From positions 2,204 to 66,203 of IMG/VR virus record IMGVR_UViG_2548876986_000002: a stretch of 64,000 nt of DNA; one strand, 5' to 3'. The notes under the pieces were generated by a model. That model was not told the origin of the DNA and searched no databases. It worked only from the letters and a program-made list of their open reading frames with translations. Source of the DNA: a virus. Both the position numbers and the translations under genes were made by a program. Positions 5,995 to 56,545 of this stretch are shown piece by piece (within the stretch, counting starts at the first letter, position 1; every line of letters begins with the position of its first letter).

Positions 5995-6110
5995 TAAAAT
6001 CTGATAAATAACAGTTACATCAATTTAGCTATTATTTATCAGGTTACCTATATTTTAGAGCTAATAATACGATCAGTTAATCTAAAAAGGTAACCAAACG
6101 GAATTTTTAA
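5995..6110 (-). promoter_or_regulatory. Capsid leader element (copy 1, diverged)
   Basis: Keeps GGTAACCTGATAAAT...ATTTATCAG and ACCTTTTTAG as in the other copies. Confidence 0.6.
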
Positions 6111-6234
6111 ATTGATCGCCTTATTCTATTTTCTACTAAAAAATCAAAAAGTATTTCTTATGTTATAATTATGCTAATCTAGAATTAGAAAAATTAATTA
6201 AACTATTAAAAATAATAAAAAATAAATTTCAAAT

Positions 6235-7155
6235 TTGTTAATAATCATGTTTAAAAAAAAATATCGCACTGAAAGTTTTTATGATCTAAGATTTTTAGCC
6301 TCTACTCTAAGACTAGGGAAGGATGAAAATTTAAAAAAACTATGCGAGGAATTAGAAGATCTAAAGCAAGATTCCTCTCTTAATAGTAAGGATACTTTAC
6401 TGTGCAAAACTAAATTTGAAAACTATATTATTCCTAAAACAAAAGAATTTTTAGCAAAAAATTTAATTTTACCTAATCAAACAGGTGATAAGTTTCTTGA
6501 AATTGTGCAAAAAAATCACTTCTTTAAAATAAGAAAACTACTTGAAGTGTATAAAATTTATTCAAAAGAAAAAACTTTTAGTACTCATCAATCTTTCTTT
6601 TCGAACTCTCAAAAAAATACAAATGAACTATTAACGCAGATCATTAAAAAAGGGAATTTAAATGAAATTAAAGATTTTATGGAAACGAGAATTGAGACGA
6701 ATGATAAATGGGTCAACGCATTCCATGCAGCGGTTCTTTATGAGCAGATAAGCACTATAAAATGGCTTTTAAAACGAGGAGCGATTGGCGTAACAAAAAG
6801 TGCTGAAACAACATTATTAAATATGGCGACCCGTTTAGAAAATATAAAAATTATAGCATTACTTTTAATGTATGGATTTGATGTTAATGGGATGAGTAAA
6901 AATAGAATTACGCCATTAGAGATCGCTATCGAGCAAAAAAACATCAAAATCATTAAATTACTTTTAGCTTACGACGCAAAAGTTAACCTATTAGGAAAAG
7001 AAACACTCAAAGTACTCTATCTAGACTCAGAAAATAATATCAAGGAATTAATTAAAAATGCTAGAACTTATTATATAAAAGAGGATGAAGATATACGGAA
7101 TCTAAATGAAGTTAAACCGTCAAATCAATATAGATGTATAAAATATAGAAGTTAA
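6235..7155 (+). CDS. Effector-like protein with C-terminal ankyrin repeats (cargo of slot 1)
   Basis: AFHAAV, TLLNMAT, TPLEIAIEQKNIKIIKLLLAYDAKVN; AT-rich. Confidence 0.85.
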   Translation: MLIIMFKKKYRTESFYDLRFLASTLRLGKDENLKKLCEELEDLKQDSSLNSKDTLLCKTKFENYIIPKTKEFLAKNLILPNQTGDKFLEIVQKNHFFKIRKLLEVYKIYSKEKTFSTHQSFFSNSQKNTNELLTQIIKKGNLNEIKDFMETRIETNDKWVNAFHAAVLYEQISTIKWLLKRGAIGVTKSAETTLLNMATRLENIKIIALLLMYGFDVNGMSKNRITPLEIAIEQKNIKIIKLLLAYDAKVNLLGKETLKVLYLDSENNIKELIKNARTYYIKEDEDIRNLNEVKPSNQYRCIKYRS

Positions 7156-7259
7156 TTTTTTATTTTTTTGACCTTCGTTTTGTAATTTCATTAATAATGA
7201 TACTAGTATAAAGTTTTCTTCTATTTAGTCGTTCTATTGCTGCGCTTGAATTTTAGAAA

Positions 7260-7740
7260 ACTGTCTTTGTAAACTGACCGGTTTGGCAGTAGTAACTCAA
7301 CCTTATCTTTGCGCTCGGATAATGAAATAGATTTAGGTACTTGATCATTTTCTGGCCCGAAAAAGATTGTTAGTTTTTCTTGTAAAATTTTATTTTTATT
7401 AAATAACGTTGATCTCTTTTTATAGACTTTTTCTAACGCTTACACGAGTTTATATATTTACCGGCATAGAATTTGGATGGTGTATCCGTTGCTTAGGCCA
7501 ATAATTTTGTTCCCTTTCCTTTTGAGGGTGTGTTTGAATCAGGATTTAGAGAAAACGACGCATTATTCTAATACTGAACTAATGAATTTAACTGAAGCAG
7601 GGAATAAGGTACGTAACATCAATCAAAAATATCATTTAACCCTGTTAAGGAGGCCTTTTACTAGGATGAAGATCAAAGCCCCACAGCCCCACATACAGAT
7701 AATTTTAGGAAAATTTAATTGAAGTTAACTTATTCTAATT
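7260..7740 (-). pseudogene. Relics of the scaffold gene and of its upstream small phage gene (copy 1)
   Basis: Reverse strand resembles LYAGKY...LEKxYK...FNxNKxLQEKL; gtgtttgaatca...gacg matches 58370-58400. Confidence 0.65.
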
Positions 7741-8202
7741 ATATTAATATGTAGATTCTACCTTAGACTTTTTTCGCTTTGTTTCAATGATTTCAATATA
7801 TTTTAATCATAATTCTATTGTCTGCTCCCCTCCTCAACACCGACTATGAAGAACTCTTCTTTGACGTCGCATGAATTTTATCTCATCGTTTAGGCGAGCA
7901 GGTTGATTTCAAATGAAGATCGTTTTTCGGTTTTAATGAATTTAAAAAAAACCAAAATTTTTTCATGATAGCGCTAACGTGAATTGTTTCTCGCTGTAGT
8001 TTTAAAGCAAGGGAGTAAGCATTATATACGTGTTCATATTGCCGAATGTGATATAGTTGTTCACCAATATCCACGACTATTTTTTTAGCGCCTACGGCGC
8101 TAATCAAAGATTTATGGCAATTTGGATGTAAATCATTAAAAACTACCCTAAAGCTATAATCAGAGAATTGAACCTTAGATAACTCTGGAGACAGTTTAGT
8201 GA

Positions 8203-54646: not shown

Positions 54647-55222
54647 CTATATCCACATCACCCGATCAAAATCGTTAAATGGCGCTGCTTTAATATCGCG
54701 CTCCATGTTATTGAGTAATAACGCATTCATTTTTTCTTTTTCGTATTTAGCTTCCAGGTAATTCGCTAAGTTGACGTTCTGCGTCAATGAAACGGCTGAA
54801 TCAGAAGCCGCATATAATGCTAAAGTTCGAGCAAAGATCGGTGGTAAGATGCTGTAATCCATCGTATTGACGAGATAATAATAGATGAATGGGTTCGTGT
54901 TAGTGAGGATGTACCCGTCTACAAGCTCAAAATCTAAAATAAAACGGTTAGCGCCCAACTTAATAAAACGCCCATAATCAAACGGTAATTGATAGGTATA
55001 ACGATAATCCGGCGAGAAATTTTGTGTAATGGGTGTATTATCTTCACGATACTTCACTGCAAAGCGCCAGGTTTCGCTCAATAATAAGATGGGTAATAAG
55101 CTATCTAGTTTCTCTGAAATAAATTGTGCGGCCTCACTTTCTTTTTCATTGGCAATCGGTGACAAACCTAAGGCTAATAAGGCTTGATTGATCACCGTTA
55201 GTTTGGAAAAAGGTAAGGCCAT
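54647..55222 (-). CDS. Tail tubular protein A/adaptor (T7 gp11-like)
   Basis: VINQALLALG..WRFA..YQLP.D. Confidence 0.8.
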   Translation of the reverse strand: MALPFSKLTVINQALLALGLSPIANEKESEAAQFISEKLDSLLPILLLSETWRFAVKYREDNTPITQNFSPDYRYTYQLPFDYGRFIKLGANRFILDFELVDGYILTNTNPFIYYYLVNTMDYSILPPIFARTLALYAASDSAVSLTQNVNLANYLEAKYEKEKMNALLLNNMERDIKAAPFNDFDRVMWI

Positions 55223-55233
55223 ACACGCCAGTC

Positions 55234-55542
55234 TTATTTGGGAGGTGGTGGTGGAGTCGGTGCGGCCACTTTAATGAGTTGTGCTTGCGGCGGATCACCG
55301 CTTTTTGCGGTATTTTTAACAGAGAATAAGCCACTGTTTTTGCTAGACTCATAGTTGATGATCATTACGTCGAAATCTTTAACTTGTTTTCGGATATACA
55401 GATCATTAATATAACCGGCTTTGGTAATAACATCTTCTTTATCTGGCGTACTAGCTGAAAATAAAGCGGCCGCTGTACCAGGAAGACCTCCGGTTACGGG
55501 AGTTAGGGTAATAAAATTGGAGGTGTTAGGTATACTTGGCAT
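55234..55542 (-). CDS. Virion/head-associated protein
   Basis: Lies between capsid and tail tube A; relic copy at about 11480-11690. Confidence 0.6.
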   Translation of the reverse strand: MPSIPNTSNFITLTPVTGGLPGTAAALFSASTPDKEDVITKAGYINDLYIRKQVKDFDVMIINYESSKNSGLFSVKNTAKSGDPPQAQLIKVAAPTPPPPPK

Positions 55543-55551
55543 AGGATCCTC

Positions 55552-56436
55552 TTAAGGGTTCTTGGCAAATTTTTGATTAGCCGTGATTAAGGCAACACCA
55601 CGGGATTGAATGATCTTGGCACCCGTTGTTAGGGTGGTTAATAATTCCCAACGGTCTTGATGAGGTAACCAGGTAATGCTGGTCGTGATATCGCGGTTAT
55701 AGCCTTGTATAATCGCATCGCGATGTACTACAGGCACCGTATATTTAAACAAACCTTTATCATCGGGTACGCGTGGAATACTGTTAATGCCGTTTTCACC
55801 TAAGAATCTAAAGTCAATATCTAAGTAGACTTTGACTTTGTTATTGGTTAAGGGTTTGACATCATTATAGAAAAAATTAGAAACCTGTTGATCGTTATAC
55901 AAAGAAGGCTTTAATAATGCAGGTGCCCAGGTTGATACTTCGAGATCATGTACATCCATACCTTGGCTTTCGAGATAGGCAATTGCTAAAGCATATTTCT
56001 CTTCATTAAGTCCCGTATTAACACCCACATCGATAGGCACAGTATAGATTTTTCCAGCAATAAAATCCGGATCACTAAAGATCGCATTGATCTTAATATA
56101 ATCAGTCAAACGCGCTGCCGCCAAACCATGCAATTTCGAATGGTCAACGATCTTATCAAAGTTATAGAGTGTTTTTTCACCACCACCAATAACTGTTTTT
56201 AGATGATAATCGTTAGTGGGAACTTGGACGTTCGTTTCATTAACGGGTGTCACAAAAATATCGGTCGGTGCAAAATTAGTTTGTGCCATTTCTACCAAAT
56301 CAGACACAGGTACATTTAGTGCTGTACCTCGTAGGCCCTCTTCAATGGTATCTTGCAGCTTTAAACGATTTTGATATTGCAGCGTGACTTGCGTATCAAA
56401 GAGCTGACACGCCGCATCATAATTAATTTCGGACAT
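55552..56436 (-). CDS. Major capsid protein (only full-length copy; start MSEINY at 56436)
   Basis: Position after scaffold; paralog starts agree; the ORF-track start at 56469 lies inside the leader hairpin. Confidence 0.85.
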   Translation of the reverse strand: MSEINYDAACQLFDTQVTLQYQNRLKLQDTIEEGLRGTALNVPVSDLVEMAQTNFAPTDIFVTPVNETNVQVPTNDYHLKTVIGGGEKTLYNFDKIVDHSKLHGLAAARLTDYIKINAIFSDPDFIAGKIYTVPIDVGVNTGLNEEKYALAIAYLESQGMDVHDLEVSTWAPALLKPSLYNDQQVSNFFYNDVKPLTNNKVKVYLDIDFRFLGENGINSIPRVPDDKGLFKYTVPVVHRDAIIQGYNRDITTSITWLPHQDRWELLTTLTTGAKIIQSRGVALITANQKFAKNP

Positions 56437-56545
56437 AAACAACCTAATAAATAAAAAATAAATTTCCATCTATCAGGTTACCCAAAAGAAGGGGCTGATA
56501 ATGCCGTGATTGACTTAAAAAGGGGACCGAATGGGCTTTTCAAAT
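56437..56545 (-). promoter_or_regulatory. Structured capsid leader (copy 6)
   Basis: CATTATCAGCCCC..GGGTAACCTGATAGAT..ATTTATTAGGTT. Confidence 0.7.

Follow-up and report, generated by a model that had tools for sequence, protein, structure and literature searches.

Why would a phage place its major capsid gene behind an RNA hairpin that covers the ribosome binding site (RBS)? A structure that is off by default is unexpected on a phage's most highly expressed gene. The question arises from a 64,000-nucleotide (nt) stretch of viral DNA, IMG/VR record IMGVR_UViG_2548876986_000002, positions 2,204 to 66,203 (hereafter the window), which carries copies of a conserved leader element of about 125 nt upstream of capsid genes or their remains. 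A preliminary description of this stretch proposed that the leader has two mutually exclusive folds, one with the RBS buried and one with the RBS free. Comparison of the 40–50 distinct leaders that share this architecture strongly supports that proposal, since both folds appear to have been kept by compensatory base changes. On balance, we favor a model in which the leader would act as a two-state switch that holds capsid translation off by default and whose on fold would be locked by a trans-acting factor.

Layout of the Leader

The RNA-sense strand of the leader is the minus strand. From 5′ to 3′, the leader consists of a sigma-70-like promoter, a first hairpin (HP1), a second hairpin made up of P1 and P2 (fold A), and a third hairpin (HP3; fold B). 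At the copy with an intact gene, the parts are as follows, with SD denoting the Shine–Dalgarno sequence.

56548..56575 (−): sigma-70-like promoter, with the −35 element TTGTAC at 56570-56575, the −10 element TATAAT at 56548-56553, and a 16-nt spacer
56510..56548 (−): HP1, the 5′-terminal hairpin, which begins a few bases past the −10 element
56495..56501 (−): 5′ strand of P1, TTATCAG, which pairs with 56470-56476 and is the anti-anti-SD element of fold A
56481..56494 (−): P2, a small variable hairpin inside P1 that can form in either fold
56467..56480 (−): middle strand used by both folds, TAAC plus CTGATAGATG; in fold A it forms the 3′ side of P1, and in fold B it serves as the anti-SD element, the 5′ arm of HP3
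56441..56480 (−): HP3, the long hairpin of fold B, rich in A and U, whose 3′ arm at 56441-56453 holds the SD sequence AGGT at 56442-56445

P1 and HP3 compete for the same middle strand. The preliminary description had fold A pairing an upstream element with a CTGATA(A/G) arm, and this is correct: TTATCAG pairs with CTGATAR around the variable P2. It also had fold B burying AGGT close to the ATG. This holds up as well, and the inverted repeat, first given as 12 nt, actually reaches 16–22 bp, with a 3′ arm that includes AGGT and stops 3–5 nt short of the ATG. At the intact copy, an A/U-rich loop lies between the middle strand and the 3′ arm of HP3, and four bases separate that arm from the ATG. 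HP1 combines an outer stem with a short CC/GG hairpin. One C is unpaired on the 5′ side, and the 3′ side has a 4-nt loop of the YNAC type (here TCCC). The predicted minimum-energy folds contain HP1.

Of 48 leaders, 31 have an upstream promoter match, within 125 nt, at 9 or more of 12 positions, and the −10 element usually ends 48–56 nt ahead of the second hairpin. Because the position of the −10 element is constant across the family, we infer that the transcript starts at the base of HP1. A consensus promoter scan made no call at the intact copy, whose −35 element matches at only 3 of 6 positions. A search of five near-complete viral genomes for a T7-type RNA polymerase, run without a positive control, detected none, which is consistent with host-type promoters.

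The folds are not products of chance. A strict version of the hairpin motif occurs six times in the window, with 0.07 occurrences expected from shuffled sequence and none found outside leaders. Folding z-scores of the leaders range from −3.1 to −5.1, and none of 200 shuffles folded equally well.

Compensatory Changes in Both Folds

The alternative helix of fold A was examined in a MAFFT alignment of 43 leaders that was not fitted to structure. Two-sided changes occur at five of the nine P1 pairs, and pairing holds in 90.9% of cells. These values were reached in 0 of 500 shuffles, and sliding the partner strand by 1–3 columns reduced pairing to 20–45%. When the alignment was based on the covariance model instead, five of seven pairs were compensatory and 96.4% of cells were paired. 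HP1 behaves similarly: a MAFFT alignment of 25 leaders shows two-sided changes at six of the nine pairs in its outer stem. The covariation score is 0.359, compared with 0.188 for shuffles, none of 500 of which scored as high.

P2 keeps its pairing while its sequence and length vary (CCC/GGG, CCTA/TAGG, CCTGA/TTAGG, and a 10-bp version in locus L008). Its loops in distant phages are GNRA or UNCG, and two of its three modelled pairs are compensatory. The preliminary description had drawn attention to covariation in this inner stem. The observation was right, but P2 fits both folds and so does not discriminate between them. The decisive covariation lies in P1 and HP3 and is visible only in more distant relatives. 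In a relative of L008 and L045 (L046:1-193, on a short contig), P2 contains an insertion of ~45 nt that repeats nearby leader sequence.

Changes in the middle strand are accompanied by changes in both of its partners. The standard set of P1 5′ strand, middle strand, and HP3 3′ arm is TTATCAG / CTGATAG / CTATTAGG, and in L060 it is TTGCAAG / CTTGCAG / CTGTGAGG. Four loci (L068, L071, L072, and L075) have TTATCGG / CCGATAG, with C-G pairs added at the corresponding place in the HP3 stem; these are clearest in L071 and L072, where CCCC faces GGGG. All three strands are altered in L073 (TTAGCAG / CTGtCTGA / GACaAGG), and a bulge has been gained. The two partner strands also arrive at different pairing solutions, P1 tending toward Watson–Crick pairs and HP3 often using wobble pairs, which argues that P1 is not a gene-converted copy of the HP3 arm.

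A test of both pairings that used no alignment agrees. Cognate P1 strands form duplexes of −6.6 kcal/mol, compared with −5.9 kcal/mol for permuted partners; the corresponding values for HP3 are −13.1 and −11.4 kcal/mol. In both cases, 0 of 5000 permutations were as low. Where a standard pair is lost, G-U far outnumbers A-C (40 against 1 for P1, 57 against 5 for HP3), which suggests that the structure acts as sense-strand RNA and not as a site in duplex DNA. Within the Rickettsiella group, HP3 appears in the RNAalifold consensus as well as in the minimum-energy and centroid folds. The 3′ arms of HP3 in distant phages do not fall into common columns in either the MAFFT alignment or the fold A model, so across groups the evidence for HP3 covariation is the duplex test that needs no alignment, together with a table of fitted partners, and not a neutral alignment.

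Folding Energies and Folding Order

The predicted equilibrium fold combines HP1, P2, and HP3, with the SD sequence paired. Forcing fold A costs a mean of 11.0 kcal/mol relative to the minimum-energy fold (range 1.1–18.2). To represent the nascent transcript, the leader was cut just ahead of the 3′ arm of HP3. P1 was part of the minimum-energy fold in 35 of 44 such nascent leaders and in 0 of 44 full leaders. In these predictions, then, the growing RNA adopts fold A first and comes to rest in fold B. This is the pattern of a transient structure, as judged by computation only: the SD sequence is hidden at equilibrium, and the alternative helix occurs solely in the incomplete transcript.

In most Rickettsiella-type leaders, the HP3 duplex has a predicted energy of about −13 to −16.5 kcal/mol. 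De Smit and van Duin are said to have found in 1990 that SD-sequestering hairpins this stable nearly abolish initiation. If so, such a hairpin in front of a capsid gene is a paradox unless some activation step opens it. Heat does not appear to be that step. In computed ensembles of two Rickettsiella-type leaders (c5 and L003), the SD region is more than 89% paired (probability of being unpaired below 0.11) from 15 to 55 °C, and an RNA thermometer of the fourU or ROSE type was rejected.

Since the fold with the free RBS is far less stable than its competitor, an effector would have to be an activator that locks fold A, and classical feedback repression does not fit. The feedback by scaffold or capsid protein suggested in the preliminary description would have to operate as activation.

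A Motif Shared by HP1 and Fold A

HP1 and the P1/P2 hairpin have a common design. Each is closed by a G-C pair and leaves one C unpaired on the 5′ side. The inner hairpin usually runs from CC to GG, and the 3′ side carries a 4-nt loop that ends in AC (YNAC). The loops of the two hairpins of one leader are often identical or nearly so in distant phages (CAAC/CAAC, TAAC/TAAC, CTAC/CTAC, and ATAC/ATAC). We trained a covariance model on 25 HP1 hairpins alone and searched both strands of 198 kb. There were 39 matches at E ≤ 1. All were in leaders, and 19 were P1/P2 hairpins on which the model had not been trained. Recovery of the fold A hairpins by a model of HP1 indicates that the two are copies of one motif. 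That fold A is predicted to be a structural twin of HP1 favors a binding factor shared by both.

A relaxed version of the motif gave nothing convincing beyond the leader in three complete phage genomes. One match, at 21889-21923 on the plus strand of G432 (the record behind L075), has an outer stem of 8 bp, and its loop ends in AC. This hairpin is probably unrelated, as about 0.5 such matches are expected by chance.

Part of the Rickettsiella group (L002, L003, L006, L007, L009, L010, and L017) has a second type of HP1, located ~50–120 nt upstream of the capsid ATG. It is a palindromic stem of the CTTAAG type, 8–14 bp long, with a loop of ~20 nt that contains AAAACTCC and without the CC/GG-YNAC core. 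The P1/P2 hairpin of those leaders still matches the HP1 model.

Proposed Mechanism and Alternatives

In the model we favor, the transcript would begin with HP1, a few bases past the −10 element. P1 would form first on the growing RNA, where the middle strand (YNAC plus a CTGATAG-like sequence) pairs upstream with the TTATCAG-like strand to give the P1/P2 hairpin and leave the RBS free. It would then lose, by about 11 kcal/mol, to HP3, in which the middle strand pairs downstream with the SD strand and the RBS is hidden. A trans-acting factor, most likely a late protein of the phage, would recognize the twin motif and lock P1/P2 during or just after transcription, allowing a ribosome to load. 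We propose capture of the early fold because a capsid gene needs very high expression and yet a weak competing helix has been conserved. A locking factor is favored because HP1 displays the motif permanently and because the two motifs tend to change together. Somewhat more tentatively, and at slightly less than even confidence, we suggest that the two hairpin copies dock a phage or host RNA-binding factor that captures the metastable second copy, which would make the leader a new class of translational activator RNA.

Several points weigh against this model. The trans-acting factor is hypothetical, and the motif is confined to the capsid leader, with no regulon of the kind that a dedicated regulator might serve. 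The fixed GYAAC internal loop of fold A that was noted in the preliminary description is present, but in fold B it also lies within the HP3 stem. Because the YAAC loop lies in the HP3 stem in the Rickettsiella group, its conservation there needs no binding factor by itself. All energies and folding orders are computed. The leaders are phylogenetically related sequences, so the shuffle controls overstate significance. In some distant phages, HP3 covers merely the first 2–4 bases of the SD sequence.

The leader might work with no factor at all, by kinetics. Transient P1 would hold the anti-SD strand while the RBS is being transcribed, ribosomes would load only on nascent or actively translated mRNA, and idle mRNA would collapse into HP3. 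The contrast between nascent and full leaders in the predicted presence of P1 is what this explanation expects, and conserved transient helices of this kind are documented (PMC4615214). We nevertheless consider it unlikely. Fold A leaves AAC(C) free as a toehold for the SD strand, so that a 7-bp P1 would be displaced faster than a 30S subunit could bind; a capsid gene requires sustained high output and not a brief window for translation; and the internal-loop motif common to HP1 and fold A is left unexplained. That motif is equally a difficulty for cleavage by RNase III, in which the host enzyme would cut the 16–25 bp HP3, removing the anti-SD arm for P1 to capture and making activation irreversible, on the pattern of the lambda N leader or the T7 early mRNAs. 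HP3 is indeed long and nearly perfect in the Rickettsiella group and extends into further helices in distant phages, its duplex is long enough in many members for a processing site, which calls for about two helical turns, and P1 would become the favored pairing after a cut. However, the lower HP3 stem is only 7–10 bp between internal loops in several distant phages, and the conserved C/YNAC loops of HP1 and fold A would go unexplained. We regard this route as improbable.

Two further explanations seem to us very improbable. Tandem hairpins with similar conserved internal loops, followed by an SD-sequestering expression platform, could be read as the two aptamer domains of a riboswitch sensing a metabolite or ion, comparable to riboswitch classes built from tandem hairpins. 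The context argues otherwise, since the downstream gene is solely a phage capsid gene and in no case one for metabolism or transport; an internal loop of 1 by 4 is also very small for a ligand pocket, and Rfam gave no match even at E ≤ 1. Slightly less credible still is the absence of any RNA switch, with the TTATCAG-like elements being DNA operator half-sites bound by a repressor or activator of the phage, or functionless hitch-hiking repeats. The element does occur three times near the promoter, twice as a direct and once as an inverted repeat, and four of the five window copies precede dead genes. A double-stranded DNA site, however, does not predict mismatches that are nearly all sense-strand G-U, nor should the partners of the middle strand keep pairing with different bases, and the elements lie about 55–125 nt downstream of the start expected from the −10 element. 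A thermometer, as a variant of this explanation, is unlikely given the computed pairing of the SD sequence from 15 to 55 °C.

Distribution of the Leader Family

Searches with the capsid protein found loci of 53–91% identity in genome assemblies (12), metagenomes (14), and IMG/VR (24). Nearly all loci that retain the start of the capsid gene bear the same leader architecture upstream, and even the distant homologs (53–70% identity, from IMG/VR and metagenomes) retain the layout. The exceptions are L050 and L051, whose upstream regions are unrelated, and L069, whose leader is rearranged. The covariance model of the family finds 62 sites in these loci, 49 of them distinct. The downstream gene is always a phage major capsid gene or a remnant of one.

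Several carriers are complete viral genomes of 33.8–35.2 kb with direct terminal repeats. The lineage is made up of small podoviruses whose structural genes follow a T7-like order, among them prophages of Rickettsiella-like bacteria and uncultured phages of 34–35 kb with direct terminal repeats. Among genomes of the host's family and order, 14 of 31 contain the leader. A capsid profile run over 400 genomes sampled from the class matched none of them other than the genome that contains the window. Among 50,697 GenBank phage records, tblastn with the capsid protein matched nothing even at E ≤ 1e-3, which leaves the family without an available cultured relative. We also scanned IMG/VR with a loose DNA pattern. 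The matches were mostly due to chance, and the model accepted just 2 of the 80 loci fetched. Both of these true leaders precede capsid homologs of 53–54% identity.

Genome Setting of the Window Copies

The window corresponds to C1:506169-570168 of a host genome of 1.73 Mb with 36% G+C, which has eight leader copies in all. By capsid protein search, the close relatives of the window's capsid gene are in Rickettsiella and Aquirickettsiella assemblies, and the elements in the window are degraded T7-like podovirus prophages within a Rickettsiella-like genome. The preliminary description had counted five leader copies here. The family covariance model agrees, finding exactly five sites, every one on the minus strand (5987-6071, 12110-12193, 13484-13566, 29546-29630, and 56431-56505). 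The genes behind all five, likewise on the minus strand, match the major capsid family PF19821, in keeping with the original label of a capsid leader, but four of these genes are truncated or dead. The gene and the leader copies are as follows.

55552..56436 (−): major capsid gene, the sole full-length copy in the window, with its start codon at 56434-56436
56434-56575 (−): leader copy 5, which heads the full-length capsid gene
29549..29650 (−): leader copy 4, 78.6 bits, with HP1 partly deleted and P1, P2, and HP3 intact; a 203-amino-acid (aa) capsid fragment follows
13487..13628 (−): leader copy 3, 72.2 bits, complete; a 149-aa capsid fragment follows
12113..12250 (−): leader copy 2, 76.6 bits, complete; a 169-aa capsid fragment follows
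5998..6111 (−): leader copy 1, decayed, 40.6 bits (E about 1e-4); a dead capsid pseudogene follows

The start codons of copies 2 to 5 are at 12113-12115, 13487-13489, 29549-29551, and 56434-56436. Copy 1 has lost its start codon and has mutations in both P1 and the SD sequence. Ankyrin-repeat genes, which are typical cargo of symbiont prophages, flank this most decayed copy at 4220-5170 (−) and 6235-7155 (+). Copies 2 and 3 are in tandem, 1.4 kb apart.

The full-length capsid gene has matches to Pfam PF19821 (E = 1.5e-18) and to PHROG 3437, a major head protein. An in-frame ATG in the middle strand (56467-56469) causes a mechanical list of open reading frames (ORFs) to give a 305-aa capsid ORF at 55552-56469. 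Homologs align starting at residue 1 of the 55552-56436 product, and this alignment, together with the position of the SD sequence, places the true start at 56434-56436. A small upstream ORF beginning at the middle-strand ATG was also considered and rejected, because distant members do not keep that codon and it lacks an SD sequence.

Gene order at the intact copy is portal (split), scaffold-side ORFs, capsid, tail tubular proteins A and B (B split), internal core proteins, and fiber; the region is a degraded podovirus prophage with a T7-like order of structural genes. The portal (PHROG 332) is split into ORFs of 350 and 140 aa at 58583-60062, and tail tubular protein B (PHROG 376) into ORFs of 370 and 201 aa at 52652-54302. 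An 89-aa ORF at 56591-56860 has no Pfam or PHROG match. In six other loci (L041, L061, L062, L071, L072, and L073), an ORF of 77–104 aa lies between the ~210–240 aa ORF in the scaffold position and the capsid promoter, and in other phages the scaffold-position ORF directly adjoins the leader.

Several copies combine an intact leader (promoter, HP1, P1, P2, and HP3) with a capsid ORF that is truncated or destroyed after 3–25 codons. Examples are window positions 11606-14232, C2:612426 (L040), L017, and L037. The leader thus seems to outlive the capsid gene, which may reflect recent decay or a separate role of the leader RNA.

Relation to Known Systems

Rfam 15 gave no match at the gathering score in the 64-kb window and none at E ≤ 1 in ten leader loci (38.7 kb, both strands), so the novelty claimed in the preliminary description survives this check. 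The family is not described in the literature searched. A hairpin that hides the RBS, opposed by a competing upstream strand, is a principle already known; the RNA family is one without an Rfam match. The leader is probably a new translational switch.

The com/mom system of phage Mu is alike in that the start region of a late phage gene is locked in a hairpin and the target is single and dedicated. There, a small phage protein binds an adjacent stem-loop and opens the RNA, and by analogy a similar protein might act on the leader. The leader has the inhibiting hairpin HP3 and, next to it, a duplicated hairpin that would be the candidate binding site. However, the RNAs are unrelated in sequence, the leader regulates a capsid gene, its open form is a defined, covarying alternative helix, and its hairpin motif occurs twice. 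We searched five leader-carrying viral genomes, 97–100% complete by CheckV, for the zinc-ribbon domain of Com (PF10122) and found no match, although the control genomes also gave no signal.

The maturation gene leader of MS2 and other Levivirus members is alike in that the SD sequence is sequestered at equilibrium by an upstream complement and a conserved transient structure delays closure. This class of delayed-folding structures is reviewed in PMC4615214. That leader belongs to a single-stranded RNA phage genome, uses a long-range interaction, and serves very low expression, whereas the capsid leader is part of a DNA-phage mRNA, uses a local hairpin, and precedes a gene whose product is needed at very high levels. 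The two leaders are not homologous. RBS-hiding hairpins that must be removed or avoided are also found in the T4 e (lysozyme) and soc, lambda N, and T7 early leaders. In T4 e and soc, a late promoter that initiates within the hairpin relieves the block, and in the lambda N and T7 early mRNAs RNase III cleavage does so. The capsid leader differs in that both types of transcript would carry the whole of it and in that a competing helix, P1, is conserved.

A 2023 survey of IMG/VR reported 8,495 candidate structured RNAs (csRNAs) in viral contigs, of which five are typically directly upstream of a major capsid domain (PMC10690425). Our leader may be among them. A keyword search of the main text of that paper returned no two-state structure, twin motif, or mechanism for a capsid leader.

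Implications

Comparative evidence for both states of a switch, with one strand covarying with two partners, is rare, and this makes the leader a clean model for co-transcriptional RNA switching. The element is short enough to be tested in E. coli reporters or in cell-free reactions, without culturing the intracellular host. If a factor does lock the on state, the leader and that factor would form a new RNA–protein pair, and temperate podoviruses would have a new way to silence the capsid gene behind a promoter that looks constitutive. If the model as a whole is true, translation would set the timing of late genes, or the silencing of the capsid gene in lysogens, across a lineage of uncultured podoviruses.

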